From: Candidatus Eiseniibacteriota bacterium
GTDB taxonomy: Bacteria > Eisenbacteria > RBG-16-71-46
Direction of reading: 5' to 3'
Assembly: GCA_031364845.1 (NCBI GenBank)
Contig: JANLWX010000197.1
Span: forward strand, 1 to 19,727
Length of the DNA stretch: 19,727 nucleotides
The position numbers and the translations under genes are program-made. The notes beneath the pieces are model-generated. The model saw only the letters and a list, made by a program, of their open reading frames with translations, did no database searches and had not been told where the DNA came from. The stretch's first letter is position 1, and every line of letters starts with the position of its first letter. This document shows, piece after piece, positions 2,718 through 19,727 of this stretch.

Positions 2718-2850
2718 CGCCAAACACTAGGCGTTCCGCGAGCCATTGGCCATGAGCCGCGCGAACCGGGGTTCATGGTCGTCCGTGCTCCAAGGAACGC
2801 CTGACCGCCACTTCGCGCAACGCCCCCCCGTGCCCTATCTTCCGCGATCT

Positions 2851-3699
2851 ATGCGCCAAACCCAGGGCTCCATGATCTGTCCGCACTGCGGCAAGCTCAT
2901 CAGTGTCACCGAGCCCGAGTGCCCGTTCTGTGGCGCGAAGAATCCCGGGCTCTACGGCTACGCGCCGGTGATCCAGCGTTTCATCGGGCGGCATCTCGAC
3001 TTCGTGACGCTGATCGTCGTCGCGTGCGTCGTGCTCTACATCGCGTCGCTCGCCCTGCAGCCGGAGGCGATCCTCGCTCCGGGTGGCGGCGGGCCGCTCG
3101 GCATGCTGTTCAATCTGCTGTCGCCGGGGACTCGCGCGCTCTACCAGCTCGGCATGACGGGTGGTGCGGCGTGGAGCCAGGGCTGGTGGTGGACGCTCTT
3201 CACGGCGGTGTACCTGCACGGGAGCCTGCTGCACATCTTCTTCAACGTGATGTGGATCCGAAATCTCGGGCCTACGGTCGACGAGGTCTATGGCCCGGCG
3301 CGCGGGTTCGTGATCTTCAGCGTGTCCGGTGCCGCGGGGTTTCTGGTTTCCAACCTGGCGACGGCGACGCCGACGATCGGCGCGTCCGGCAGCATCTTCG
3401 GGTTGCTCGCGGCGTTGATCGTCTATGGCCGCCGCACCGGCTCCTCGATGCTGACGCAGCAGCTGTGGCAGTACGCGATCATGATGTTCGTGATGGGCTT
3501 CGTGATGAGTTCGGTCAACAACTGGGCGCATGCGGGCGGGTTTGCGGGCGGATGGGTCGCGGGCGAGGCGATGCGGTTCGGACACGAGAAGCGCGAGAGC
3601 CTGGCGGTCCAGTTGGTGGCGCTCGGCCTGCTGGGCCTCACGGTGGTGGGATTCGTGCTGTCGTTCGTGCGCGTGACGATGATTCTGATGAAGGGCTGA
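2851..3699 (+). CDS. Rhomboid family intramembrane serine protease with an N-terminal zinc ribbon
   Basis: N-terminal CPHC...CPFC. Rhomboid motifs 'WWTLFTAVYLHGSLLHIFFN', catalytic 'IGASGSIFG' and 'NWAHAGGFAGG'. Several hydrophobic TM segments. Start placed at ATG 2851 (ATG 2872 is an alternative); the extension to 2746 in the ORF track does not look like coding sequence. Confidence 0.92.
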   Translation: MRQTQGSMICPHCGKLISVTEPECPFCGAKNPGLYGYAPVIQRFIGRHLDFVTLIVVACVVLYIASLALQPEAILAPGGGGPLGMLFNLLSPGTRALYQLGMTGGAAWSQGWWWTLFTAVYLHGSLLHIFFNVMWIRNLGPTVDEVYGPARGFVIFSVSGAAGFLVSNLATATPTIGASGSIFGLLAALIVYGRRTGSSMLTQQLWQYAIMMFVMGFVMSSVNNWAHAGGFAGGWVAGEAMRFGHEKRESLAVQLVALGLLGLTVVGFVLSFVRVTMILMKG

Positions 3700-3801: not shown

Positions 3802-6462
3802 ATGTCCGGATCATTCCTCGAAAATCATCTGGCGCATTCGCGCGATGAATTCACGGTGCTTCCCCCGGAGCAGCGCGGGCCGGTCGTGCGCACCGCGATC
3901 ACGGACCTCCACTACTTTTTCGACGAGGGCCGGGAGTTCGCCGAGCGCGAAGCGCCGGCTCGCAGCCGCGCGTTCGCGGCCGAGCTGTATCGCGCGATGG
4001 AGTCCGTGGGCAGCCCGGATGCGGTGACGCGCACGCTGCGCGAGCGCATCGTCACCGATGCGCTGCTGCGTACCGAAGCCGACCGCGATCAGAACGTCTA
4101 TCTGGGTCCGTTCTTCACCCGCTCGCTCACGCGCGCGGTTCCCGACGTCATCTTCCAACCGGCGACGAGCGCCGAGGTCGCGCGCGCGCTGCGCTGGGCG
4201 CGCGAACGCGGAGTGCCGGTCACGTTGCGCGGCGCGGCATCGACCGCGATGGGTGGCGCGGTGCCGAACGACGCAGGCCTGGCGCTCGATCTGTCGCGGC
4301 TCGATTCGATCGAGGTCGACGCCGCGGCCGGCGTGTGTGTCGTCGGCGCGGGCGCGCGCATGCGCACGATCCACACCGCACTCGCCGCGCGCGGGCTCGC
4401 ACTACTCGCGTATCCGTCCAATCTCGGCGGCACGTTTGCGGGTTGGTTCGCGACCGGCGGAATCGGCATGAATGCGTACGGCGCGGGGCGCGCGCTCGAC
4501 ATGGTGCGCGCGGCCGAGGTGTTGCTGCCTTCGGGCGAGCACGTGCGATTCCACGACGATGGCCGCGTCGATCTGCCCGAGAACCAGGCGCATCGCACGC
4601 TCACCGCCGCCGAGGCGGCGAGCTGGTTCCATTCACGCGGCTACCAGGCGTTCGGCCTCGCGGATCTCGCGGGCAGCGAAGGCACGCTCGGTGCCTTGCT
4701 GCAGTTGACGCTGCGCGTCGAGCCGCGGCCCGAGGTCGGGGCGTTCCTCCTGTCGTTCGCGCGCGAATCGGACGCAGCGGACGCGGTGTTGTGGCTCGGG
4801 CGCCTCGAGTTGTCTGCCAAGCCGGCGAACGTGAAGCTGCTTTCGGGATCGCATATGCACCACACGCGCCGCGTGTGGGAAGACGAGGACGCGCGCGAGT
4901 GGCACGATCATCCGGGTGCCCTCACCGACGGCTCGCAGCTTCCGTGGCGGCGCATCGCCGGTCCGCGCGAGCTGGGTGCGGCGTGCGCCGAAGATGTGCA
5001 CGATGCGGCGGCGTACCTGTTCGTCGACTTCTTCGATCTCGGGGCTGCGCGATCCTTTGCGCGCGCCGCGATCACGTGTCCCGGCGCTCCGCGCGTGCTC
5101 GATGCCGAGAGCGCGCGATTCGCGGCCGAACGCTTCAAGCCACAGCAGACCAAGCGGCTCGGACCGGGCATGCTGGCGGCCGAAATCCTGTTGCCGGCGG
5201 GCGAGGTGAAGCGCTTCCTTCCGCGCGCCGCGGCACTCGCGCGCAACGCGGGCAATGCGCTGGATGCGGAAGTCTACTTCCTCGCGGACGGCTCGGCGCT
5301 CGTGATCGCGGGTTATCTCACCGATCATCGCACCGGCGCGTTCGCGGTCGATCTGATGATCGCCCCGGCGCTGCTCGATCTCGCGATGCACGATCATCAG
5401 GGCCGGCCCTATGTGCTCGGGCGCTGGCAGTCGGCGTGGTTCGTGAACAAGTTCGGGCCCGCGGCGGCCGAGCGCCTGCGCGAGATCCGGCGCGGGCTCG
5501 ACTCGAACGCGATCGTGAACCGCGGCGTGTTCACCGGCCTCGAATTGCGCGGTGTGCTCGGCTCGATCGTTGCCGCGACGTTCGCGCCCGGCGTCACGCT
5601 GATCCGCACGATCTATCAGGTGCAAGCACTCGCATGGATGGCGCGCGCGGCGCGCGGGTTCCTGCGCGGAATGTCGGGCCCCGCGCACGGACGCGGCGCG
5701 CCGCTTCCGCACGCGACGGCGAAGGCAGGGGCGGTGGAACTCGCTCCCGAAGACCGCGCGCTGCACTGCGTGAATTGCGGCGAGTGCAATTCAGTGTGCC
5801 CGGTGTTCCACGAATCGAAGATCCGTTTGCCGCAGATGCTCGTCCACATCGGCGAGTCGATGCGCGGCAAGGAGCCGATCACTCCTGCCGGCGGCACGCT
5901 GCTCGACCTGTGCATGCGCTGCGGCAACTGCGAGCAGGTGTGCCAGGCCGGCATCACCCATCTGCCGCTCTACGAGAGCATGCAGCGCACGGCTGACGCG
6001 GCGCGCCCGCGCGATGAGGACCGCCACGCGGCGATCGTGGCCTCGGTGCGCGGATCGAACCGCTATCTGCGCGAGTTTCTGCACGTGCGCCCGGGCGGCT
6101 ACCATAAGCGCACGCCGGTCGCACTGCCCGGCGTCGCGCGTTTCATCGTGTTGCGCGCGGAGAACGATGCGGGTCCGGCGAGCACGTGCATTCATTGTGG
6201 CGCGTGCGTGGCCGTATGCCCGACGCACGCCAACCGCGAATTCGAAGGACTGGACGCGCGCTTGATCACCACGCTGCAAGAGCGCTGCATCGGCTGCGGC
6301 TCGTGTGTCGAGGTGTGTCCGAACAACCATTTGAACGGCGGCCAGACGTTGCGTGTCATGGAAGCGCCGACGCCCGACTGGTTCGCCGCAATCCGCGATT
6401 TCGAGAAGACCCAACGAGGCTCACCACCGGCAGAAGATCCGACTCACACCATTCGAACTTGA
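3802..6462 (+). CDS. FAD-binding oxidoreductase (FAD_binding_4 / GlcD-like) fused to two 2x[4Fe-4S] ferredoxin-type domains
   Basis: FAD domain motifs 'PDVIFQPATSAEVARALRWARERGVPVTLRGAASTAMGGAVP', 'GTFAGWFATGG', 'GSEGTLG' and 'IRRGLDSNAIVNRG'. Fe-S motifs CVNCGECNSVCP (5767), CMRCGNCEQVC (5911), CIHCGACVAVCP (6187) and CIGCGSCVEVCP (6286). Purine-rich AAGGGG lies upstream of the ATG. Confidence 0.88.
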   Translation: MSGSFLENHLAHSRDEFTVLPPEQRGPVVRTAITDLHYFFDEGREFAEREAPARSRAFAAELYRAMESVGSPDAVTRTLRERIVTDALLRTEADRDQNVYLGPFFTRSLTRAVPDVIFQPATSAEVARALRWARERGVPVTLRGAASTAMGGAVPNDAGLALDLSRLDSIEVDAAAGVCVVGAGARMRTIHTALAARGLALLAYPSNLGGTFAGWFATGGIGMNAYGAGRALDMVRAAEVLLPSGEHVRFHDDGRVDLPENQAHRTLTAAEAASWFHSRGYQAFGLADLAGSEGTLGALLQLTLRVEPRPEVGAFLLSFARESDAADAVLWLGRLELSAKPANVKLLSGSHMHHTRRVWEDEDAREWHDHPGALTDGSQLPWRRIAGPRELGAACAEDVHDAAAYLFVDFFDLGAARSFARAAITCPGAPRVLDAESARFAAERFKPQQTKRLGPGMLAAEILLPAGEVKRFLPRAAALARNAGNALDAEVYFLADGSALVIAGYLTDHRTGAFAVDLMIAPALLDLAMHDHQGRPYVLGRWQSAWFVNKFGPAAAERLREIRRGLDSNAIVNRGVFTGLELRGVLGSIVAATFAPGVTLIRTIYQVQALAWMARAARGFLRGMSGPAHGRGAPLPHATAKAGAVELAPEDRALHCVNCGECNSVCPVFHESKIRLPQMLVHIGESMRGKEPITPAGGTLLDLCMRCGNCEQVCQAGITHLPLYESMQRTADAARPRDEDRHAAIVASVRGSNRYLREFLHVRPGGYHKRTPVALPGVARFIVLRAENDAGPASTCIHCGACVAVCPTHANREFEGLDARLITTLQERCIGCGSCVEVCPNNHLNGGQTLRVMEAPTPDWFAAIRDFEKTQRGSPPAEDPTHTIRT

Positions 6463-6568: not shown

Positions 6569-8770
6569 GTGACGCCATCCACTCCGCGTTCGGAGCGTCT
6601 CGCCGTCCATCAGCGCCAGCCTCGTTCCTTCGACGCCCCGCGTCTGCCCGACGGACACCGCCAGCCGGTCAGCGCCTACTACGGCCGGCACGTCCTCGAT
6701 CTCATCAAGTTGAAAGAGCGCCTGCCGCGCGAGACGTATCAGGCGCTGCTCGCCACTCTGCGCCACGCAGCACCGCTCACGCGCGAGTCTGCCGAATCGA
6801 TCGCGTCGGTCGCCCGCGAATGGGCGACGTCGCACGGCGCCACCCACTTCACGCACTGGTTTCAGCCGATGACGGGCTTGACCGCCGAGAAGCACGACAG
6901 CTTCATCGACCTCAACGTCACGATGTCGGGCGAAGCCAAGGTGCTCGAGCGCTTCTCGGGCGCGCAGCTCATGCAGAGCGAGCCCGACGCGAGCTCGTTC
7001 CCATCGGGCGGCATGCGCAGCACGTTCGAGGCGCGCGGCTACACGGCGTGGGATCCCAGCTCGCCGATGTTCCTCGTCGAAAGCGTGAACGGCCGCACGC
7101 TGTGCGTGCCTTCGGTGTTCGTGAGCTATCACGGTGAGAGCCTCGATCACAAGACTCCGTTGCTGCGCTCGCTCGAGGCGCTCAACCGCCACGCGGTGCC
7201 GTTCTTGAAACTGATCGGCGACGTCGACGTGCATGCGGTCGGCGCCACGCTCGGCTGCGAGCAGGAGTACTTCCTCGTCGATCGCGACCATCACGCACTG
7301 CGTCCGGATCTGGTGCTGTGCGACCGCACGTTGCTGGGCGCGGCTTCCGCGCGCGGGCAGCAGTTCGAGGACCACTACTTCGGCTCGATTCCGCCGCGCG
7401 TGCTGGCGTTCATGGAAGAGCTGGAGTTCGAGCTGCACCGCCTCGGTATCCCGGTGAAGACACGTCACAACGAAGTGGCGCCGATGCAGTTCGAGATGGC
7501 GCCGATCTTCGAGGACGCCAATCTCGCGAACGACCACAACGCGCTGTCGATGGACATCGCGCGCAAGGTGGCGTTGCGCCACGACTTCGTGTGTGTGTTC
7601 CACGAGAAGCCGTTCGCGCGGCTGAACGGCAGCGGCAAGCACTGCAACTGGAGTCTCGTCACCGATCGCGGCGAGAATCTGCTGGATCCGGGCCGCACAC
7701 CGCACCAGAACCTCCGGTTCCTCGCGTTCATGGCCGTGTGCCTGAAGGCGGTGCACGATCACTCGGACGCGATCCGCTTCTCGGTGGCGGCGGCGAGCAA
7801 CGATCTGCGCCTGGGTGCCAACGAAGCGCCGCCCGCGATCATCAGCGTGTTCGTCGGCGATCTGCTGACGCGCATCATCGACCGCATCGCCGCGGGCGTG
7901 ACGGGCGAGGATCCGGAGCACTTCGTGATGGAGATCGGCGTCGGCCGTCTGCCGCAGCTGGCGCGCGACAACACCGACCGCAACCGCACATCGCCGTTCG
8001 CCTTCACCGGGAATAAGTTCGAGTTCCGCGCGGTCGGAAGCTCCGCGAACTGCGCCGGACCCATGACGATGCTGCTCGCCGCGGTCGCCGATGCGCTCAA
8101 GGTGATGACGCCGCGGCTCGAGGCGAAGATCAAAGCCGGAACCGCGCGCGACCAGGCGGTGCTCGATCTGCTGCGCGAGGTGTTCACCGAGACGGCCGCG
8201 GTGCGCTTCGAAGGCAACGGCTACAGCGACGAGTGGAAGCGCGAAGCCCAGCGCCGCGGGCTGCCCGATCTCAAGGACACGCCGTCCTCGATCGCGTCAC
8301 TCGCCAAGCCCGAACGCACGGCGTTCCTGCGCGAGCTGGGCATTTTCTCGGATCGCGAGCTGGCGAGCCGGTTCAGTGTGGCGCTCGAACGTTATCTCAA
8401 GACCGTGACGCTCGAAGCCGAAACGCTGGTGGAGATGCTGTCGACGCATGTGATCCCGGCGGGTGAGAAGCAGCTCACCGCGTCGTCGCTCGCGTTGCGC
8501 GGCGCTCCTGACGGTGTCGCGGGGCTCGATCGCCGCGTGAAGGCGGTGGCGGCAGCGCTCACCGAGGCGGTCGCGGGATGTGACCGGCTCAAGGAGTTGC
8601 TCGACGGCTCGGCGAACATGCACGACGAGGCGAAGCTCGCGACCCATCTCGCGGACGTGATGCGGCCCGCGATGGACGCCGCGCGCGACGCCGCGGACCG
8701 GCTCGAGCATCTCGTGGATCACGAGCTGTGGAGCCTGCCCAAGTATCGCGAGATGTTGTTCGTTCGCTGA
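6569..8770 (+). CDS. glnA: Glutamine synthetase type III (GlnN/GSIII), about 733 aa
   Basis: GSIII motifs: THFTHWFQPMTGLTAEKHDSF, EPDASSFPSGGMRSTFEARGYTAWD, GCEQEYFLVD, KTRHNEVAP, HEKPFARLNGSGKHCNWS, RLGANEAPPAIIS, DRNRTSPFAFTGNKFEFRAVGS, WSLPKYREMLF. GTG at 6569 is preceded by SD GAGGAG (6555-6560). Confidence 0.96.
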   Translation: MTPSTPRSERLAVHQRQPRSFDAPRLPDGHRQPVSAYYGRHVLDLIKLKERLPRETYQALLATLRHAAPLTRESAESIASVAREWATSHGATHFTHWFQPMTGLTAEKHDSFIDLNVTMSGEAKVLERFSGAQLMQSEPDASSFPSGGMRSTFEARGYTAWDPSSPMFLVESVNGRTLCVPSVFVSYHGESLDHKTPLLRSLEALNRHAVPFLKLIGDVDVHAVGATLGCEQEYFLVDRDHHALRPDLVLCDRTLLGAASARGQQFEDHYFGSIPPRVLAFMEELEFELHRLGIPVKTRHNEVAPMQFEMAPIFEDANLANDHNALSMDIARKVALRHDFVCVFHEKPFARLNGSGKHCNWSLVTDRGENLLDPGRTPHQNLRFLAFMAVCLKAVHDHSDAIRFSVAAASNDLRLGANEAPPAIISVFVGDLLTRIIDRIAAGVTGEDPEHFVMEIGVGRLPQLARDNTDRNRTSPFAFTGNKFEFRAVGSSANCAGPMTMLLAAVADALKVMTPRLEAKIKAGTARDQAVLDLLREVFTETAAVRFEGNGYSDEWKREAQRRGLPDLKDTPSSIASLAKPERTAFLRELGIFSDRELASRFSVALERYLKTVTLEAETLVEMLSTHVIPAGEKQLTASSLALRGAPDGVAGLDRRVKAVAAALTEAVAGCDRLKELLDGSANMHDEAKLATHLADVMRPAMDAARDAADRLEHLVDHELWSLPKYREMLFVR

Positions 8771-8780
8771 GAGGAGCACC

Positions 8781-11700
8781 GTGAGTTCCGTTCACGACCG
8801 ACCTGCTGACCCAGAGCTCCCGGCCTTCGGGCCGGGAGCGGGGGAGACGCTGCCCTCGCACGCTGCGCTGTGGGAGGACCTGCTCGCGCTGGTCGTCGAT
8901 CCCGAACACCCGCATGTCGAGGATCGTGAGCGCAAGCGCCGCGTGCTGTCGTTTCTGCTCGAGCGCGCGGGCATCGATGAAGGCGCGTTCTGGAAGCTCG
9001 GGCGCGGTCAGCGCGGGAGAAGGTTTCTCGCGCGCTGGTCGCGTGCTTCGCGTGAGATCCCGCAGCTCGAGATCACATCGTTCGATCTCGACAAGGTGCT
9101 CAAGGAGCGCTTCCGCGACGATCCGCTGACGGTCGGCGCGGCATGGCATCACGGATACTGGCGCTCGTACTTCTCGCACGCGGCTATCACGCACCCCGCT
9201 AACGAGGGTATACGCGTGGTGTTCTCGACCGCCTGGTAAATCGTGCGCAAACACCCGGGGGTGCTGTTCCGCACCGCCGACGGCCAGACCCAGCTTCCCA
9301 TCCGCTCCGTGCGTCTCGATCTGCCGATGATCGTCGGTCCGCTACCTTACTCGGACGGCGTCACGATGGAGCGGGCCTACATGGCGGCCGCGGCGCACAT
9401 GGCGACGCTCGTTGTTCTCCACGCGCGCGACTTCGCCGCGAATCGCGAAGCGCTGCGTCCCTACGCAGCGCAGATGATGGTGCGTTTCGATCACGCTCAC
9501 ATCGCAGGTCTGCGCGGGGATGGCGTGGCCGCTGAAGCGCTGCGCGAACTCCTCCCGCACAGTGCGATCGCCGAGATCGAGTGGAGCCCGTCGCTCGCGG
9601 CCGACATTCGCGAGTTGCGCGCGTTCTCACCAGAGCTTCTGGTCTCGGTGTTCATGAAGATGAGCGACGGCGAAATGCTCGAGGTTGCGGGCCGCGAGAA
9701 AACCGACTTCTGGAGCGCGCTCGAAGAGGCCGTCCGTCTCGAAAACGTCGCGGTGATCCACTACCACGCGGGGCCCCAGAAGTCGTACCGGCTCACGCCG
9801 CGGATCGATGCCTTCTTGAAAGCGCGCTTCCTGCGCGCGCGCGTCCAGCTTGTCTCCGCCGGCGGAACCACCGACACGAACGCTTCGGCGGCGACGGTCT
9901 ACGAAGCCGTCCTGCTCGGCGCCAACGGCGGTGCGATGACCGACGTGGCCGGCATCGCACTGCGTCCGGAATTGATCGACGTCTATCACGGCGCCGACCC
10001 GGCACCCGTGATCGAGGGCCTCGCTGCCCTCGACCCCGAGGAACTGCGCGAGCTCGCCGAGAACACGCTCGCGTGCTGGCAGCACAGCATTCTCGACTTC
10101 CTCTCGTGCATGGGCATCGACGACATCCAGAAGACCTCGGGCAACACGATGGCGATCACGCTGACCGAGGACTGGATTCGCGAGGTCGATGCGCTCGCCA
10201 CGCCCGAGTTCGGCAACGTGAATGCGGCCCTCAACCGGCGTCGCGTCGAAGCCGAGCCGGTGCCGGGCGCGGTGCGCGAGAAGTATCGCGCGTCGGCGCT
10301 GCTCCAAGAGCGCGTGCCGGATCTGCCGCAGGTTGCCGCCGCAAGAGTGCTCGCGCACGACAACGCGAACTTCCATCTCGAGAATACGAACCGCAATCTG
10401 AGCGCCGACTTCCTCGAAGTCATCTATCGCATGGCGGCGGGCGACCTGCCGCGCGTCGACGATTTCCTGATGGAGAGCGACATGGGTCCGATGTCGCTCG
10501 ATGCGATCGGACTCAAGGTGTCGCGGGAGTCGATCGCGTGGTCGCTCGAACGTCTTGCGCGGGATCCGCGTCTCCTGGACTACGTCTCGCTCGCGGTGCC
10601 GCGTGGCTTCGTCCGGCATGGCGCGGTCGCGCCACGCGCGGCCGTCGAGATCCGCGCGACCGAAGCGGGTCCGGCGCTCGCCGCGTTCACCGCGGATGCG
10701 CGCGGCGGATTCGAGATCGCGCACGGCGCGGACCATCCGCTCGGGGCCGCGATCGAGGGCGACGCGTCCTTGTGGCTCGTCGCGCGCGATGCCGAAGGTG
10801 CCCTGCGAAGCCTGGAGCTGACGGCCTCGGCGCACGGAGGACACGGGCTCTCGGTGGCGCGCGCATCGCAGGATGGAGCGGTCACGCTGCGCCGCCATGC
10901 GCGCGGCGGCGTCACCGTCGCGGGCTTCGGGTTCCGTGAGCCGATCTGGCACGGCCCCGTCGCGCACGCGAGCATCTCACTCGGTGCCGCGTCCGAGGAT
11001 CTGCTGGTCGCGCGCATCGAAGGCAACGCGGGCCTCGCCATGACTTCGTCGGGTGAAGGCGGCCCGATCCGGTTCAGCGGCGACGAGATGGCGTGGGAGA
11101 GTCTGCAGGCCGCGAGCGGACACTTCGGCATTCACGCCGCCGACCTCCGTCGCGTGCGCGACGTCGAGATCAAGATCAATCAGGGTGCCAAGCCCGGCAA
11201 GGGCGGTCGCCTGTCGGGTGCCAAGGTCACGAGCACCGTGAGCAAGGCCCGCAACATTCCGGTCGGCACCGACGCGCTGTCGCCCGATCCCAAGCACGAC
11301 ATCTATTCGATCGAGGACATGCCGGCCGAAGTGTGGCTGTGGCTGCTCTATCACAACCACTGCGGCATCAAGATCACGGGTTCCAACTACACGCGCTTCG
11401 TTGCCGCCGGCATGTGGTCGAACTTCGTCGTCGATTATCTGCTGGTCGATGCCGGTCTCGGTGGCTCGGGCAACTATCACGCGGACAGCTCGCACGTCGG
11501 CTGGCCCGACATCTTCCGCACGATCCTGCACACGCATCACGCGCTGGTGTCGGAGAAGGTCGATCTCGACCGCAAAGGCTCGCTCGAGTCGATCCGCGAT
11601 CTCAACGGTGCCCCGTTCGGCGCCGGCGGCGGCACGCGGCTGCTCGCCTCGGGCGGCCTGCGCGGCGAACTCGACATGCTGAAGGTGATGATCGCGGGCG

Positions 11701-14700
11701 CCGACGCGCTGGTCGAGGCCAGCATCGGCAAGGCGGTGGCGTTCGGCTGCAACCAGTGTGGCAACTGCCACCTCGATTGTCCGCGCGGCGGCATCACCAC
11801 CAAGCCCGAACTGACGATCCAGAACGATCGCGGCCTCATGAAGCAGCGGTTTCGCAACTGGACCGTGATCAACATGGTGAAGCTCGCCGTGATGATCGAT
11901 GCGATCAACCGCGAGAGCGGCGCCCTGGCCGCGGATGGCAGCGTCGCGCATGCCGGCCGCATGATCGACGACATCCGTCTGCTGCGCGGGCGCACCGATC
12001 TGCTCGTGATGCCCCGGCACGAACTTCCTGCGGGCTCGCTGCGCGGCCCGGTGACCGCCGAGATCGCGGTCGCGCACCCGCCTTCCGCGCACGCGCGTGA
12101 CACCCGCGCGGCCGATGCCGCGGGGGCTCCGGCAATGGCCGGCGGCGGAGCCAACGGCAGCACGACGCGATTCGAACCCGAACGCGACTCGTGCCGCGTC
12201 GGCTCGCTCGCGGTATCGGAGCCGGTGACGGTCGATGCGATCTGGGAGTCGGCGCGTCTCTCGTACAACGGCGGCAACAATCGCGGCGGTGGCATCGACT
12301 TCGCGGGCTTCGCACCGGCCGCGGTGGGCGAGAAGACCTGCATCATCGTGAACACGATCGGGCCCGACCGCGCCGACACGATGCGCGAGATGCTCGGCCA
12401 CTTCGGCGGCTGCCGGTTCTTCGACGCCGCGGGCGCCGAACTCACGCTCGAAGCCGCGCGCGCGCGCATGGCGGAGTTCCGCGTCCCCGTCCGCGACACC
12501 TACGACTCCGAAGACGGCTGGCGCCGCGCCGACCTGCGCGAGAACCCCGGCGACTTCTATACGTGGTTCGTCGAACTGCGGCCCGAAGTCCTCGAGCGCT
12601 ACGGGCTGCTGCTGGTGGCGAGCGAGCACTGGCTCCAGCGCCACACGCGCTATGGCGACATCCCCGACGCCACGCTGGCGTGGGCCCTTGCGCATCCCTT
12701 AGAGCAGCTCGCGGATGCGGGCGACGTCACGCGCGACCGGCTCGCGGAGTTCGTCGCGGACGTGCGCGAGGAGTACTTCACCGCCTTCGCGCACATGCTC
12801 GACTCGCGCTTCTACCGCACGCACGCGCCCGCCGGATCCGCGCCGCCCGCGAACAAGTACGCCGCCAAGCGCCGCGGCTTCGTCGTGTCGATGGGCGAGG
12901 ATCTCGGCGCGATCAAGATCTCGGGCTGGACGCACACGATCCCCGAGTACTTCGACTTCGACCGGTTCTGGGCCGGTTATCCCGGCGCGCGCGAAAGCGG
13001 CGGCATCGAGATGACGATCAAAGGCTCAACCGCACGCACGACCGCGCTCCACGCGCATGTGTGGGGCATGCACCACCGTTATCCGACCAACTCGCCCGCG
13101 ATCGATGCCGAGGGTCGCGGCAATCCGGCCGGCGCTCATCCGTTCAAGGCGTACAACGTGTTGCTGATGCACAACGGCGAGCAGGTCGCGGTCGATTCGA
13201 CGTCACCGTTCCTGATGGAATATGGCTTCGTCCATGCCGACCCCTCGATGGGAGATGGACACGCGGACTATCACGGCGACTCGGTCTACGAGCGCAAGGC
13301 GCTCACCGACACCGAATACGCGGCCTACCTGGTCGACTTCACGCGGCGCGTGCTGGGGCTCACGACCGAGGAGGCGAGTCAGATCATCTCGCCGATCACG
13401 GGCTTCGATCTCGCGAGCATGGACGACGATCGCCGCCGCAAGTTCGAGCTGCTGATGCGTAACTACGTCCAGCTCACGCCGACCGGTCCCTACAAGTTCA
13501 CGATCGTGGAGTCGCGCCGCCGCCGCGCGGCGACCGCATCTGGATCGGAACGCGGGCCGCTCGCGCGCGTCGTCGGCTTCCGCGAGAACATGGACATCAA
13601 ATTCCTGCGCCCGCACGAGATCGTCGTGAGCGTCGACACCGCGCGCGGCGGTGTCCATGTGGTCGCGAACGGCAGCGAAGCGAAGATCGCCGACAGCATG
13701 CTGCGCACGCTGCACGCGCAGGGCGTGCTCGCCGAAGCCGGGCACGATCTGCGATTCAACATGCGTCCGGGCGGCGCCCCGCAGCGTCACGACTACGGCG
13801 GCGTGTTCGAGGTGTTCACGGTGCCCGGCAGCGGGACGCTCGACCTGCGCAACCGATTCGGTGAGCCGGTCGAGGTCGAGCGTCGCGGTACGAAGGCGGA
13901 TCTCGCGCGTCCGATCACCACGCTCGCCGACAAGGCCAACGCCGAATGGCGCCACCACGCCGAAACGCGGCTCGCGCAACTCGCGGCCGTGGTCGACGAA
14001 GACGCGCCTGGCCGCGCGCGATATGGGCCCGATGACGAACTGCCCGCTCCCGCGAACGAACTGATCGAAGCCACGCTCGAACGCGCCCGCGCGATGACGT
14101 TCGAGGACTATCGCTGGTTCACCGAGCTCGCGTTGCCGGAGTGGGCGCGCGGCCCGCGCACGCCGTCTGAAACCGCAGATGCGCGCACCGCGGTCGCTTT
14201 GCGCATGCTCGCGCACCTGCGCACGCGGCTCTCGCTCTGCGATCTGGGGGGCAAGGCGCTGTCGAGCATGAACTACCTGACCGACGGCGGCCGTGCGGGC
14301 AACGGCACCGCCGAAGGCGGTGTGTACCGATTGCTCGACCGTGTTCCCGCGCTCCATCACGCGCTCGGCGCCACGACCGAGCTCGCACGCTGGGGCCGGC
14401 TCACGCTCGAAACACGCGATGACCTCGCGGCTCCCGTCGATCCGGCCGGCGACGTGCTGGTGATCGACTTCGCGGGATTCGAGAGCGAGTCGTTCAAGCT
14501 GGACTCCGCCTCGCGCACGGTGAGCGAAGCGGTGCGGATGGGTTGGCGGAATTTCGTGTGCTACGGATTCATCGGCGGCCCGCGCTATGTCGGCACCAAT
14601 CTCGCGAGCCCGGACGGGATCGCGGCCGCCGGTGTGACGATCGAGATGTACGGCCGCGAGTTCGGCGACTTCATCGGCGCACTGTTGGAAGGCGCGCGCA

Positions 14701-15380
14701 TCCACGTGTTCGGACAGGGGCAGAGCCATCTCGGCATGAAGGCCGATTCGGGATATCTGTTCGTGCTGCAGGACATCCTGAACACGGGCATGTACGCCGC
14801 GCACGGCGCGACCGTCAGCGTATGGGACTCGGGCTCGCGCTTCGCGGTCGCGGGGCAGAACAAAGTGTGGCTCGCCGACGGCAAGACCCCCGCACCCGGA
14901 TTCCGCTCGATCCACTTCGGATCGCCGAACGAGTACGCGTTCGAGTATCTGATGTCGGGCGGCGACAACTCCTTCCATGTCGTGATGGGGTTGCGAAAGC
15001 CGGACGCGCGCGGCGAGTTGTCGCTCAGGCCGCGGCCCTACTCGGGCAAGTTCTTCATGTCCGGTGCCGCCGCGGGTCGCGTGTTCGTGTTCGATCCGCT
15101 GGTGCGCCTCGATCCGGCGCAGTATGGCGGCAACGTGCTGTCGTCGATCACGCCGGAAGAGTGGACGCAGGAGCTGGGTCCGATGATCGCAAGCGAAGCG
15201 AAGCGCCGCGGTCTGCCGATCCGCATCGAGGGTGACTCGCTCACCATCAAGCTCGAAGGCGAGTGGCGCCGGTGGCGCTACGACGAGGCGTTCGCGAAAT
15301 TGATACCGGTCAAGATCGCGCGCGCGTCACAGCAGCAGGGTGTGGTACCGCCCGCGCTGGTGCAGATCGTCGGGGAATAG
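8781..15380 (+). CDS. gltB: Giant rearranged glutamate synthase-like protein (degenerate FMN-type barrel + FMN/Fe-S synthase domain + internal class II glutamine amidotransferase + GXGXG domain); one frame interrupted by an in-frame TAA at 9237-9239 (ORF track splits it into 8781-9239 and 9243-15380)
   Basis: Strong SD GAGGAG (8771-8776) before GTG 8781; no SD before 9243. The two ORFs share a frame (offset 462 nt). FMN-domain signature EIKINQGAKPGKGGRLSGAKV...SPDPKHDIYSIED (QGAKPG at 11181), ASGGLR and CNQCGNCHLDCP (11748). GATase-II motifs ERDSCRVG (Cys at 12192), HHRYPTNS (13071), AHPF, HNGE (13170) and TDTE. C-terminal GXGXG/beta-helix-like region GPRYVG...GDFIGALLEGARIHVFGQGQSHLG...EYAFEYLMSGG...MSGAAAGRVFV. 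The symbol denotes family membership, not canonical orthology. Confidence 0.85.
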
Positions 15381-15427
15381 GCGACCACGCGAATGCCCGC
15401 CGTGCAGCGTCCCGAACTCAGCGCACG

Positions 15428-16150
15428 ATGACCGCGCCCGAGATCCTCGAACACACGATCACCACGCCGAACGGCAAGGTGCCCGCGCTGTGGATGCGCC
15501 CGCCGGCCGCACGCGCGGCGCTGGTGCTCGCGCACGGCGCAGGGGCGGGCATGCGGCATTCGTTCATGGAGGCCATCGCCGCGCGCTGCGCGGCCAACGG
15601 TCTCGCGACGCTGCGCTACGAGTTTCCGTACACCGCGGCCGGATCGCGAAGACCCGATCCGCAGCCGGTGCTGCTCGAAACGGTTCGGGCTGCCGTCGCC
15701 GTGGCGCGCGGGCTCGGCGGCGATCTGCCGCTGATCGCGGGCGGGAAGTCGATGGGTGGGCGCATGACCACGCTCGCCGCGGCCGAGGAGCCGCTCAATG
15801 GCGTGCGCGGGATCGTGCTCGTGGGATTTCCGCTGCACGGCGCCGGCCAGATGCCGAACAGCGCGCGCGCCGCGCACCTCGACCAGGTCCAGGTGCCGAT
15901 GCTGTTCCTCCAGGGCACGCGCGACGCGCTCGCCGATCTCGACCTGATGCGCGGGGTTTGCGGCCGGCTCGGCTCCCGCGTCACACTGCATGTCGTCGAG
16001 GGCGCCGACCACAGCTTTCACGTTCCGAAACGCTCCGGCCGCGACGACGCGATGGTGCTGGATGAACTCGCCGTTTCGACCGTGGTATGGATCGAAACGC
16101 TTCAGCTCATCGCCCGCCGCCGCCAGACCCGGGAGGACAAGGCCGAATGA
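15428..16150 (+). CDS. Alpha/beta fold hydrolase (dienelactone hydrolase / KANL3-Tex30-like)
   Basis: LVLAHGAGAGM, nucleophile elbow GGKSMGGR, GFPLH, FLQGTRD (Asp) and EGADHSF (His). ATG at 15428; the ORF-track start at 15263 overlaps the preceding gene. Confidence 0.9.
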   Translation: MTAPEILEHTITTPNGKVPALWMRPPAARAALVLAHGAGAGMRHSFMEAIAARCAANGLATLRYEFPYTAAGSRRPDPQPVLLETVRAAVAVARGLGGDLPLIAGGKSMGGRMTTLAAAEEPLNGVRGIVLVGFPLHGAGQMPNSARAAHLDQVQVPMLFLQGTRDALADLDLMRGVCGRLGSRVTLHVVEGADHSFHVPKRSGRDDAMVLDELAVSTVVWIETLQLIARRRQTREDKAE

Positions 16151-16845
16151 AGTTCCACATCGGGACCAGCGGTTACTCGTACGCCGAGTGGAAGGGCAAG
16201 TTCTACCCGGAAAAGATCAAGCCCGCCGACATGCTGCCTTACTACGCGACCCAATTCGGCGCGGTCGAGATCAACTACACGTTCTATCGCATGCCGAAGC
16301 CCGAAATGGTCCAGAGCTGGACCGCCCGCGTTCCGCCCGGGTTCCAGTTCGTGCTCAAGGCGCCGCGGCGTGTGACGCACGACCGGCGACTGGCCGATGT
16401 CGGCGAAGTCCTCGGATATTTTCTCAACGCGGCGATGACGCTCGGAGACCATCGCGGACCGCTGCTGTTCCAGCTTCCGCCCAATTTCAAGCGTGATGAC
16501 GCGCGCCTCGCGGACTTCCTGGTACAACTGCCGGCCACAGTCCGTGCCGCGTTCGAGTTTCGCAACGCCTCATGGTTCGACGATACGGTGTTCACGCTGC
16601 TGAAGACCCACCAGGCCGCGCTCTGCATCGCGGACACCGAGGACGGACTCGACACGCCGTTCGTCGCGACCGCGCGGTGGGGATACTTCCGGCTGCGCGA
16701 TGTCGACTACGCCGACGGCGAGCTGGAGGCGTGGATCGCCCGCGCGCGTGAACCGGAGTGGAGCGAGGCGTTCGTGTTCTTCAAGCACGAGGACGAAGCG
16801 CGCGGTCCGGAGTTCGCGCGGCGCTTCTCGGAACTCGCGGTCTGA
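16147..16845 (+). CDS. DUF72 (YecE-like) family protein
   Basis: IGTSGYSYAEWKGKFYP, AVEINYTFYRMP, FVLKAPRRVTH, LLFQLPPNF, EFRNASWF, YFRLR and VFFKHEDEARGP. ATGA overlap with the upstream stop and SD GGAGGA at 16132-16137. Confidence 0.93.
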   Translation: MKFHIGTSGYSYAEWKGKFYPEKIKPADMLPYYATQFGAVEINYTFYRMPKPEMVQSWTARVPPGFQFVLKAPRRVTHDRRLADVGEVLGYFLNAAMTLGDHRGPLLFQLPPNFKRDDARLADFLVQLPATVRAAFEFRNASWFDDTVFTLLKTHQAALCIADTEDGLDTPFVATARWGYFRLRDVDYADGELEAWIARAREPEWSEAFVFFKHEDEARGPEFARRFSELAV

Positions 16846-16931: not shown

Positions 16932-17513
16932 ATGACGAACCGAGTACTCCCGCGACACGTGGCGGGACTGGCCGCCGGAATCGTTCTGATGTGCGGTACG
17001 GCGATGGTGCTGATCGCGCCGCGCGCGCGCGCTCAGGATCCGGAGTTCCGCAGCAACGTGTCGATCGCCGGAGGTCCGATCTTTCCTGTCGGCGCCCGGC
17101 CTCCGTTCGACGAACTCGGCAGCACCTATATGGCCGCGATCTCGGTGGGCGACGATTTCTCGACCGTCGGCTTTGCGCTCGGCTATTCGGTGTTCGGCGC
17201 AAGCCCGCTCGCGGACCGCGGGACGAGCGTCTCGCAGTTCGAGCTGCGCGCCGACTGCGTGCCGTTCTCTCCCGACACATGGTCACCGTATCTGCGCCTG
17301 GGCGCCGGCGCGTACAACGTCGACCTCGACCGGTCGATCAAGGACAGCACCTCGCGCCGGGTCGGAATCGCGACCGGGGTCGGTGTGCGGTGGGCGCCGC
17401 GGTGGCACACGGCGATGACGCTGGTCGCCTCGTATCACAACGTGCCGTCGCGCGGAACCTCGACGCGGCAGTGGATCGGCCTCACCCTCGAGCTGCTGCG
17501 CTGGATGGACTGA
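16932..17513 (+). CDS. Small outer-membrane beta-barrel (OmpA/OmpW-like) protein with a signal peptide
   Basis: Signal peptide ending APRARA-Q. Amphipathic beta-strand segments 'WSPYLRLGAGAYNV', 'VGIATGVGVRW', 'LVASYHNV' and 'QWIGLTLELL'. GGGAG SD upstream of ATG 16932. Confidence 0.7.
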   Translation: MTNRVLPRHVAGLAAGIVLMCGTAMVLIAPRARAQDPEFRSNVSIAGGPIFPVGARPPFDELGSTYMAAISVGDDFSTVGFALGYSVFGASPLADRGTSVSQFELRADCVPFSPDTWSPYLRLGAGAYNVDLDRSIKDSTSRRVGIATGVGVRWAPRWHTAMTLVASYHNVPSRGTSTRQWIGLTLELLRWMD

Positions 17514-17522
17514 AGCCGGTCC

Positions 17523-19727
17523 TCACGCAGGACCGAGCACCGCCCTGACTTTGTGCGTGGCACCGTCGTCCGTGAGCCGGATGCCCGCTTTGGGATCGAG
17601 CGCTGTTCCATCCAGCTCGAGGCTCACGATGCCCGTGGTTGCATGGTTCGGGTTCTCGATCTGCACTTCGTAGGTCGCCGAGTGATGCCGCAGGCGGATC
17701 GAGTAACCCGGCCAGTTGCGCGGGATCGCCGGATCCAGATGCAGGACGCCGTCGCGCACGCGCACACCGAGAATCCACTCCAGCCCCGCGCGATGGAGCC
17801 AGCCGGCGGCCCCGGTGTACCACGTCCAGCCACCGCGGCCGGTGTGCGGGGGCTCGGCGTAGACGTCGGCCGCGACGACGTACGGCTCGGCGCCGTAGCG
17901 CTGCATGTCCTCACGGTTCGTGGCGTGCATGATCGGATTCAACATCTGGAAGATCGCGGCCGCGCGATCGCCGTCGCCGAGCTCGGCGAACGCGATCGCG
18001 GTCCACACCGCCGCGTGTGTGTACTGCCCGCCGTTTTCGCGGATGCCGGGCACATAGCCCTTGATGTAGCCCGGCTCGAGCGGCGTGCGATCGAACGGGG
18101 GCGTGAACAGCAGTACCAGGCCCGATGCGGGGCGGATGAGATCGCTCTCGACCGCCGCCATCGCGCGCACCGCGCGTTCGGGATCGGCCGCACCGCTCAG
18201 TACCGCCCACGACTGCGCGATCGAATCGATCCGGCACTCGTCGCCCGAGTCGGTTCCGAGCGGAGTTCCGTCGTCGAAGTACGCGCGCCGGTACCAGCCG
18301 CCGTCCCACCCGTGGCGTTCCAATGCCGCGGCCATTTCGGTCATGTGCGTGCGCCACGCGAGCGCGCGCGCGGGTTCGCCGCGCGCTTCCGCAATCGGGG
18401 CGAACGCGCGCAGGTTGGCGTACAGGAACCAGCCGAGCCACACGCTCTCGCCCTTGCCGCCTTCGCCGACCCGGTTCATCCCGTCGTTCCAGTCGCCGGT
18501 CCCCATCAACGGCAGCCCGTGACTTCCGACCGCGAGGCTGCGATCGAGCGTGCGCGCGCAATGCTCGTACAACGAGGCGCGCTCGTTCGAAATCCGCGGC
18601 TCGAAGTACGACTCGTGCTGATCTTCGTTCAGCGTCTCGCCGTCGAGGAACGGCACGATCTCACCGAGCACGGCGTGATCGCCGCTCGCCGCGATGTACT
18701 GGGTCACCGCGTACGGCAGCCACAGCAGGTCGTCCGAGATGCGCGTGCGCACACCACGGCCCGACGGCGGATGCCACCAGTGCTGGACGTCGCCCGCGAC
18801 GAACTGGCGCGCGGCGGCGCGCAACAGATGCGCGCGGGTGAGGTCGGGCCGCACGTTGCTCAAGGCCATCATGTCCTGGAGCTGGTCGCGGAATCCGTAG
18901 GCGCCGCCCGCCTGATAGAACCCGGCGCGCGCCCAGATGCGCGAGCTGAGCGCCTGGTACAGGAGCCAGCGGTTCACGAGCAGATCCATCGCGGGCTCCG
19001 GGGTGGAAATCTGAACCGCCCCCAGCACCTCGTCCCAGCGCCGCGTCACCTCGCGCAGCAGTTCGTCGATGTTCGCCTTGCGATAGCGCCCGATCAGCTC
19101 CCGCGCGCGGTCGCGGTCGGCGGTCTCGCCCAATAGAAATACGATGTCCGCGCGCGCGCCGGGCCTTATCTCGATCACGGTGCGCAACGCGGCGCACGGG
19201 TCGAGACCCGCTCCGACCTTGCCCGACAGCGGATCTTGAATCCGAAGCGCGCGCGGCAGCGCGGTCGAGCCGTTGCGTCCGAGGAACTCGGTGCGGTCTG
19301 CGGTCCATGACGTCTGCTTGCCGGCGAGATCGGCAAACGCGATACGCCCGCCGAACTCGCCGCTCCATGCGCTGCGCGCGAACACCGCGTTCGTCATCCC
19401 GTCGATCTCGGTGATGACGTGCGGAGGCCGCCCGCCGCGCGATTCGCCGAGCACCCACTCGACGTACGCGACGATCGAGATGCGGCGCGTGCGGCCCGAG
19501 AGATTCTTCAACGAGATGCGCGTGATCTTGACCGGATCCTCGGGCGGAACGAACTGCAGCATTTCGCTCGAGATGCCGCGCGCCGTGTGACGGAAGCGGC
19601 TGTAGCCCTGGCCGTGATGAGCGGCATGGAACGCGGTTGCACTGCGTACCGGCAGCGCAGTGGGGCACCACACTTCGCCCGAGGCTTCGTCGCGGAAATA
19701 GAACACCTCACCCGACGAATCGGAGAC
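17523..19727 (-). CDS. GH94 glycoside phosphorylase domain, probably the C-terminal part of a cyclic beta-1,2-glucan synthase/phosphorylase (NdvB/ChvB/Cgs-like); 5'-truncated at the window edge
   Basis: The frame is open to the window end (VSDSSGEVFYFRDE...). Motifs HGQGYSRF, DRTEFLGRNG, GAGLDPCAAL, FYQAGGAYGFRDQLQD, GDVQHWWHPPSGRGVRTRISDDLLWLP, catalytic GTGDWNDGMN, GYIKGYVPGIRENGGQYTHAA and GRGGWTWYTGAAGW. Confidence 0.9.
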   Translation of the reverse strand, partial: VSDSSGEVFYFRDEASGEVWCPTALPVRSATAFHAAHHGQGYSRFRHTARGISSEMLQFVPPEDPVKITRISLKNLSGRTRRISIVAYVEWVLGESRGGRPPHVITEIDGMTNAVFARSAWSGEFGGRIAFADLAGKQTSWTADRTEFLGRNGSTALPRALRIQDPLSGKVGAGLDPCAALRTVIEIRPGARADIVFLLGETADRDRARELIGRYRKANIDELLREVTRRWDEVLGAVQISTPEPAMDLLVNRWLLYQALSSRIWARAGFYQAGGAYGFRDQLQDMMALSNVRPDLTRAHLLRAAARQFVAGDVQHWWHPPSGRGVRTRISDDLLWLPYAVTQYIAASGDHAVLGEIVPFLDGETLNEDQHESYFEPRISNERASLYEHCARTLDRSLAVGSHGLPLMGTGDWNDGMNRVGEGGKGESVWLGWFLYANLRAFAPIAEARGEPARALAWRTHMTEMAAALERHGWDGGWYRRAYFDDGTPLGTDSGDECRIDSIAQSWAVLSGAADPERAVRAMAAVESDLIRPASGLVLLFTPPFDRTPLEPGYIKGYVPGIRENGGQYTHAAVWTAIAFAELGDGDRAAAIFQMLNPIMHATNREDMQRYGAEPYVVAADVYAEPPHTGRGGWTWYTGAAGWLHRAGLEWILGVRVRDGVLHLDPAIPRNWPGYSIRLRHHSATYEVQIENPNHATTGIVSLELDGTALDPKAGIRLTDDGATHKVRAVLGPA

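Follow-up and report, generated by a model that had tools for sequence, protein, structure and literature searches.

A rearranged relative of glutamate synthase, about 2,200 residues long and with a predicted catalytic cysteine in mid-chain, from an uncultured bacterium

The stretch of DNA analysed here (the window) comprises 19,727 nucleotides, positions 1 to 19,727 of contig JANLWX010000197.1 in the assembly GCA_031364845.1 of a Candidatus Eiseniibacteriota bacterium. It carries a giant gene whose predicted product, a protein of about 2,200 residues, is by its sequence a rearranged relative of glutamate synthase from an uncultured bacterium, with its predicted catalytic Cys in mid-chain. Class II glutamine amidotransferases, which are N-terminal nucleophile (Ntn) hydrolases, need a free N-terminal Cys, and in the glutamate synthase GltB this residue is exposed by removal of a short propeptide. 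We consider it probable that the giant cleaves itself before Cys1138 into chains of 1137 and 1062 residues (predicted masses of about 123 and 117 kDa, respectively), giving a two-chain enzyme that handles glutamine. Judged from the sequence comparisons below, the feature is real and family-wide, and the proposed cleavage would be ordinary Ntn chemistry at an unusual place, internal self-cleavage being common among Ntn hydrolases. The features of the gene, with residues counted from the GTG at 8781, were as follows.

8781..15380, + strand: giant permuted glutamate-synthase-like gene, 2199 codons; N-terminal region, central-like barrel, flavin mononucleotide (FMN) barrel, linker, class II amidotransferase, GXGXG
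9276..10142, + strand: degenerate first barrel, central-domain-like (BLASTP E 1e-10, 23% identity to the first-barrel protein of split locus L086)
10953..12005, + strand: FMN/synthase barrel (PF01645 E 3e-44 over 10953-11864; GltB structures E 1e-20), ending L-R-G-R-T-D-L-L
11298..11318, + strand: D-I-Y-S-I-E-D loop, Glu845 aligned with Glu978 of Azospirillum GltB (115/115 homologues)
11748..11783, + strand: iron-sulfur motif C-x2-C-x2-C-x3-C-P (Cys990, 993, 996, 1000; each Cys in 117/117 homologues)
12006..12179, + strand: hypervariable Ala/Pro/Gly linker, located where genes meet in split relatives (19-65 residues in 120 sequences)
12180..12203, + strand: predicted processing site E-R-D-S-C-R-V-G, predicted cut between 12191 and 12192, Cys1138 at 12192-12194 (TGC)
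12192..13871, + strand: predicted class II (Ntn) glutamine amidotransferase domain (hhalign to relatives; ESM Atlas; motifs in 118-119/119 homologues)
12267-12293, + strand: N-G-G-N-N-R-G-G-G motif, amidotransferase domain
13071-13091, + strand: H-H-R-Y-P-T-N motif, amidotransferase domain
13170-13181, + strand: H-N-G-E motif, amidotransferase domain
13305-13316, + strand: T-D-T-E motif, amidotransferase domain
14451..15317, + strand: GXGXG beta-helix domain (profile A1 matches FwdC 5t5i, E 2e-5, and GltS 1llw, E 1e-3; PF01493 over cut-off in stand-alone relatives)

The Ala/Gly/Pro linker, the segment F-E-P-E-R-D-S-C-R-V-G-S-L and the Cys codon at 12192-12194, all described in an earlier reading of the letters without database searches (the sequence-only reading), were present in the window. 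That reading had proposed conservation of D-S/A-C across homologues as a check, and the element was kept in all 119 aligned homologues (the best 120 of 145 matches minus the query; 64-90% identity). Position by position, the site held E/D in 119, H/R in 118, and D, S/A, C, R and V in 119 each. Because 514 of the 2060 well-filled alignment columns (approximately a quarter) were invariant, such invariance in close homologues is modest evidence when taken alone, and the alignment with distant stand-alone proteins described below appears to weigh more. The motif [ED][HR]D[SA]C is not in itself rare, as 7 instances were found against 7.6 expected by chance in the organism's own genome (2.69 million residues in open frames of at least 300 residues), corresponding to an expected rate of about 0.006 per protein of 2200 residues; by these counts, its conservation at the site exceeds chance. 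The linker of the giant has 62 residues, and the linkers overall were unalignable (27% Ala, 17% Pro, 10% Glu, and 9% Gly). The leaders of three canonical GltB sequences ended in E-H-D-A followed by C-G-V (L111 and L112) or E-G-D-A followed by C-G-V (L114), bearing out the GltB leader motif given in the sequence-only reading.

The site and the FMN motif lay in one open frame in 50 of the 57 loci that showed the site; two of the others were cut by a contig end, and five were shifted in frame at several points of the gene. A genuine gene split at the linker was considered for L039 and L045, where the frame changes, and was rejected: further frameshifts occur in both, and in L039 no start codon lies between the last stop and the Cys. 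Release of the Cys by internal initiation and Met removal was likewise rejected: the preceding residue was Ser/Ala in 119/119 homologues, and Met occurred in just 12 of the 119 linkers. With Met directly before the Cys in no homologue, removal of Met cannot expose it.

Alignments of sequences and profiles support Cys1138 as the counterpart of Cys1 in class II amidotransferases. Aligned by hhalign, the fused and stand-alone amidotransferase domains matched from their first residue (99.9%), so that Cys1138, taken as Cys1 in the sequence-only reading, coincides with the first Cys of the stand-alone relatives as well as with the GltB leader junction. As the hhalign rows had been pre-cut at the Cys, the spacing from Cys to Asn-x-Gly, 25 residues in fused and stand-alone forms alike, serves as an independent check. 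The domain also matched the GltB1-like protein of a split operon (hhalign 98.5-99.6%). Class II amidotransferases have an alpha-beta-beta-alpha Ntn fold with the Cys in the active site; the top ESM Atlas clusters for the giant's domain were GATase_6/GATase_2 at 0.91-0.92, a language-model feature match, and a weak match to PurF covered the glutamine-site stretch (E 0.76). The glutamine-site motifs H-x-R-Y-P-T, H-N-G-E and T-D-T-E were each found in 119/119 homologues. The residues of these motifs have functional roles, and Glu978 of Azospirillum GltB helps to activate the glutaminase site.

Upstream of the linker, the FMN barrel scored 152 bits against the PF01645 cut-off of 20.4, with its FMN motifs and Cys cluster invariant. 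PF01645 was the sole Pfam family matched within the giant protein by the Pfam search, which thus misses the amidotransferase domain entirely, and the giant was the single PF01645 locus in genome G000 (97% complete). The sequence-only reading had treated the roughly 1100 residues ahead of the Cys as an FMN half acting as the propeptide; the FMN barrel is indeed there, but the segment also includes the degenerate central-like barrel and the four-Cys motif. Full-length homologues were mostly about 2100-2300 residues long.

Stand-alone proteins of about 870 residues combining amidotransferase and GXGXG were found in five genomes of the same class, with 26-28% identity to the giant's domain. GXGXG was over cut-off in all five, and GATase_6 matched all five (E 2e-7 to 2e-4), over cut-off in two of them. 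Behind a leader, E-G-G followed by C-G-V was present in 8/8 stand-alone loci examined, so the subfamily likely required a cut before any fusion. In the first five of these loci, the gene lay directly behind an FMN-barrel gene. The separate FMN proteins of split relatives carry L-R-G-R-T-D-L-L at or near the C-terminus, and the copy just upstream of the giant's linker aligned to residues 966-973 of the 982-residue FMN protein of L088. Since its site aligns with the first Cys of proteins encoded directly behind an FMN-barrel gene, the giant probably arose when two adjacent genes fused; in the simplest history, the stop between them would have been lost and the former leader turned into the linker.

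A profile search for distant relatives yielded 1197 matches at E 0.001, of which the best 150 were examined. Among these, six more distant fused proteins kept the internal Cys (P0141, P0227, P0178, P0180, P0185, and the fragment P0196), including P0141 with E-L-D-A followed by C-G-V and the Cys at residue 1896 of 3016. In four of the six, an oxidoreductase binding flavin adenine dinucleotide (FAD) was also fused. P0141, P0227, P0178 and P0185 (2500-3000 residues) combine FAD oxidoreductase, iron-sulfur (Fe-S) domains, two barrels, amidotransferase and GXGXG in one chain. The same parts occur circularly permuted in P0154 (3152 residues), with the amidotransferase at the N-terminus. Three deep fused lineages on long branches were seen in a quick tree of 38 rows, although the fused forms may have one origin. 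The named loci came from metagenome genomes of Ca. Eisenbacteria, Thermoleophilia, Krumholzibacteriia, Planctomycetota and a few others.

In the proposed mechanism, the thiol of Cys1138 in the folded protein would attack the Ser1137-Cys1138 bond, and an N-to-S shift would be followed by hydrolysis, comparable to removal of the short leaders of GltB and PurF. The barrel chain (1137 residues) and the amidotransferase-GXGXG chain (1062 residues) would remain associated, as the separate subunits of the relatives presumably do. The free alpha-amine of Cys1138 would then activate the thiol for turnover of the glutamine amide, and the ammonia would travel to the FMN site and enter the redox step between 2-oxoglutarate and glutamate there, while the four-Cys cluster would carry electrons to or from the FAD/Fe-S protein of an upstream gene. 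Glutamate synthase makes two Glu from Gln, 2-oxoglutarate and a reductant. Which way the reaction runs in vivo is less sure than the cleavage, and glutamate formation is taken as the default. Should the cleavage prove real, a class II amidotransferase could free itself from any position in a chain, and the search for such domains would have to be widened accordingly. The GltB leader has long been assumed to remove itself, and the giant would make this step easy to watch as the conversion of a 240-kDa protein into chains of 123 and 117 kDa; the known chemistry of other Ntn hydrolases limits the surprise of self-cleavage.

The giant shares its four domain types with GltB and Fd-GltS (Azospirillum 1ea0, 2vdc and 6s6s, the numbering of the last running 36 residues ahead of the other two; Synechocystis 1llw; and B. 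subtilis 7mfm). It also shares with GltB the FMN-barrel motifs, including D-I-Y-S-I-E-D (E 1e-20), and the type of leader/Cys junction. Whereas the amidotransferase comes first in canonical GltB, according to PMC8097209, the order in the giant is central-like, FMN, amidotransferase and GXGXG. Its 'leader' has 1137 residues, compared with about 20-50 in GltB, and a four-Cys motif is found where GltB has a [3Fe-4S] cluster. Its gene neighbour encodes a GlcD/VAO-type (FAD_binding_4/Fer4) flavoprotein, where canonical GltB has GltD or ferredoxin as electron partner, as judged from the locus neighbourhood (no genome-wide GltD search was made). Against the GltB model PRK11750, the giant scored 85 bits, while the NCBIfam cut-off is 1047. 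The giant thus appears glutamate-synthase-like, yet falls outside canonical GltB on order, score and partner.

In the split archaeal-type GltB1/GltB2/GltB3 arrangement (Monoglobus operon L113), to which we take the MgsABC/GlxBCD layout to be comparable, the GltB1-like protein is the one closest to the giant's amidotransferase and has a short leader before its Cys. By comparison, the giant fuses the parts, places the amidotransferase internally and adds a second, degenerate barrel. Its nearest relatives are the uncharacterised stand-alone proteins of ~870 residues (L085-L089, L115-L117, P0124, and others), which follow FMN-barrel genes in the same gene order but are encoded separately and carry E-G-G/C-G-V and N-R-G, where the fused type has E-H-D-S/C-R-V and N-G-G. 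Isopenicillin N acyltransferase, penicillin acylase and gamma-glutamyltranspeptidase are two-chain self-processing Ntn hydrolases; they belong, however, to other Ntn subfamilies, and the piece released is not a separate redox enzyme half. According to PMC13044924, Ntn hydrolases in general become active either when the initial Met is taken off or when they cut one of their own internal bonds; the paper describes isopenicillin N acyltransferase (Cys103), in which internal self-cleavage exposes the nucleophile, as is predicted in the giant. EgtC/GATase_4 (4zfj, 4zfk, and 3mdn) resembles the giant in its Cys-Arg start and in lacking Arg at the H-R-G position, but EgtC is small, stand-alone, freed by Met removal and not close to the giant's domain.

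The reading frame of the giant is interrupted in the assembly near its start.

9237..9239, + strand: in-frame TAA, codon 153 of the frame counted from GTG 8781, probably an assembly error

The open frame after this stop spans 9243-15380 (2045 residues, with the Cys at residue 984) and has an in-frame GTG at 9243. Nearly all homologues covering residues 170-300 also covered residues 30-150 (103/106), and 92 of the 105 homologues with a residue at the stop position had Asp there; five of the residues within 142-160 were found in no homologue. Clustered substitutions at 9185-9283 altered otherwise invariant codons, the TAA among them, and resemble one poor read in the assembly. Contigs of run X1 with zero differences ended at 9184 and restarted at 9284, and a contig of X2 across 8900-9445 had 12 differences to the window (a count alone, the identity of the bases not being given). 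All four runs compared belong to a single study, with X1 possibly the source of the assembly. We regard the TAA as probably an assembly error. Stop-codon recoding appears unlikely, the codon being TAA and the homologues mostly having Asp. That the gene in this genome is a recent pseudogene or is truly split at 9237, with the site idle or the first fragment reduced to 983 residues, is highly improbable: the assembled stop and the GTG at 9243 would fit such a state, but the stop lies in a 60-base cluster hitting otherwise invariant residues, the cluster coincides with the hole in the exact X1 contigs and with the differing X2 contig, and the remainder of the gene is intact. The sequence-only reading had placed the Cys at about residue 1138 and predicted fragments of about 1137 and 1062 residues; both numberings hold when counted from GTG 8781, but the interrupting TAA was not mentioned, and the value of 1137 is valid only if the TAA is an assembly error, the fragment otherwise having 983 residues.

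The distribution of the enzyme type was compared with that of glutamine synthetase in 151 genomes of the phylum, which are incomplete and related, and which included 34 carriers (35 matches, with G140 dropped as a single weak match). Carriers accounted for 22 of the 24 genomes without a PF00120 match (20 listed; G042, G051, G060 and G148 deduced from family tallies) and 12 of the 127 with one, so that the enzyme type and glutamine synthetase were close to mutually exclusive; one glutamine-synthetase-positive non-carrier (G038) is flagged unpublished. A search of 61 relatives with the window's own type III glutamine synthetase (GSIII) gave the same picture, and PF03951 had no match in five carriers of 96-100% completeness. 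Glutaminyl-tRNA synthetase was present in two of these five and GatB in all of them; the two with glutaminyl-tRNA synthetase would need free glutamine. Among split relatives, glutamine synthetase was frequent (5/8). PF00310, the canonical GltB amidotransferase, had no match in G000 and two in the 151 genomes, one a short contig-end fragment (G024) and one under cut-off; no full canonical domain was found in the 151 genomes searched. Such a distribution is a stronger reason to study the enzyme, as the type marks nearly all sampled genomes without glutamine synthetase. The pattern could mean that the glutamine used is imported, that ammonia is used directly or that the reaction runs in reverse. 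In the last case, the self-cut enzyme would oxidise one glutamate at the FMN site, and the ammonia would amidate a second glutamate at the internal-Cys site, the FAD/Fe-S partner handing the electrons on to a high-potential acceptor. This would constitute an ATP-independent, redox-driven glutamine source replacing glutamine synthetase, and would account for both the 22/24 pattern and the remodelled active site of the Cys-Arg lineage. The reverse reaction is uphill with NAD(P) and near balance with a quinone-level acceptor (overall couple estimated at about -0.06 V), and we know of no reverse glutaminase step; we see in it a slim possibility.

Several observations weigh against the proposed self-cleaving, glutamine-handling enzyme. 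Searches of Pfam, NCBIfam and PDB sequences with the C-terminal half, from the Cys onward, gave no match, and hhalign of the domain to three canonical GltB amidotransferase domains was weak (10% with all rows and 0.3% with the fused rows). The proposed match to Cys1 draws on alignments of sequences and profiles. In the H/Y/N-R-G motif, about 26 residues past the Cys, the Arg has a role in class II amidotransferases; it is replaced by Gly1164 in 119/119 homologues, and Arg takes the place of Gly at position 2. The stem on which these changes fall is long (4.96 changes per column in the quick tree), so the substrate or direction may have shifted. Glutamine synthetase was not detected in 19 of the 26 genomes with the fused Cys-Arg type, and the overall pattern fits poorly with ordinary assimilation by glutamine synthetase and glutamate synthase. 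Finally, the window's own copy carries the stop as assembled. Concerning the lost Arg, the organism's own GlmS and PurF keep it, while EgtC also lacks it, so the fold family tolerates its loss. Among 35 distant matches with a recognisable start, 29 had Cys-Gly with N-R-G and six Cys-Arg with N-G-G, and the six, being one lineage, represent one event. The Arg at position 2 may stand in for the lost motif Arg.

The sequence-only reading had itself offered the alternative that Cys-Arg marks an uncut enzyme using ammonia directly. The amidotransferase would then be a structural relic and the FMN site would aminate 2-oxoglutarate with free ammonia, without any need for glutamine synthetase, in agreement with its apparent absence from most carriers and with the loss of the motif Arg and of Cys-Gly. 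This alternative is weakened by the invariance of the Cys, the residues preceding it and all glutamine-site motifs. Furthermore, EgtC begins with Cys-Arg and has N-A-D-G-W-G at the H/N-R-G position (4zfj and 4zfk), yet is an active Ntn amidohydrolase according to PMC9103826, so that Cys-Arg does not support an uncut enzyme. In addition, a Glu/Leu/Phe/Val dehydrogenase family gene was present in 50/51 genomes (at family level, subfamily unresolved), which suggests that an ammonia route probably exists already, and we judge an uncut enzyme unlikely. We hold it similarly unlikely that a host protease opens the floppy linker before self-trimming to the Cys, or acts alone. The linker is long, of low complexity and unconserved, as is often the case for protease-sensitive linkers, but conservation is limited to the four residues before the Cys, in the same place as in GltB leaders, and no conserved protease gene stands beside the locus (window neighbours tested; rhomboid in 9/64 loci). 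It is also conceivable, but very unlikely, that the Cys acts without a free N-terminus through another general base, possibly tied to the Cys-Arg and Arg1168 changes, so that the intact chain uses glutamine. Concerted invariant changes around the Cys in the giant's lineage would suit such chemistry, whereas the other fused lineages retain ordinary Cys-Gly and N-R-G, the leader-like residues are retained, and the literature searched offered no precedent. In that literature, which mostly excluded subscription papers, neither this enzyme nor a glutamate synthase with an internal amidotransferase Cys was described. Self-cleavage before Cys1138 remains the probable explanation.

An FAD/Fe-S oxidoreductase gene was found upstream of the giant in 48 of 64 loci; in the remaining 16, the DNA did not reach far enough upstream. 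Three of the five split loci had this gene as well. Its product is likely the electron partner that replaces GltD. In the window, a GSIII gene stands between the flavoprotein and giant genes, an arrangement found in 4 of 64 loci (L009, L012, L018, and L022). The neighbouring genes were as follows; those for the rhomboid protease, the alpha/beta hydrolase, the DUF72 protein and the 193-residue protein were neighbours in some relatives only.

3-1076, + strand: HNH endonuclease with a weak RuvA_C-like tail (Pfam), cut by the contig start
1095-2723, - strand: probably secreted repeat protein, 542 residues, with a FlgD_ig/sorting-domain-like C-terminal tail (Pfam)
2746-3699, + strand: Zn-ribbon rhomboid protease
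3802..6462, + strand: FAD-linked (GlcD/VAO-type) oxidoreductase with 4Fe-4S motifs (PF01565 and three Fer4)
6575..8770, + strand: type III glutamine synthetase, start codon inferred (PF12437 E 6e-68)
15263-16150, + strand: alpha/beta hydrolase
16087-16845, + strand: DUF72 protein
16932-17513, + strand: 193-residue protein with no Pfam match
17523-19727, - strand: GH94 glycoside phosphorylase domain, cut by the contig end

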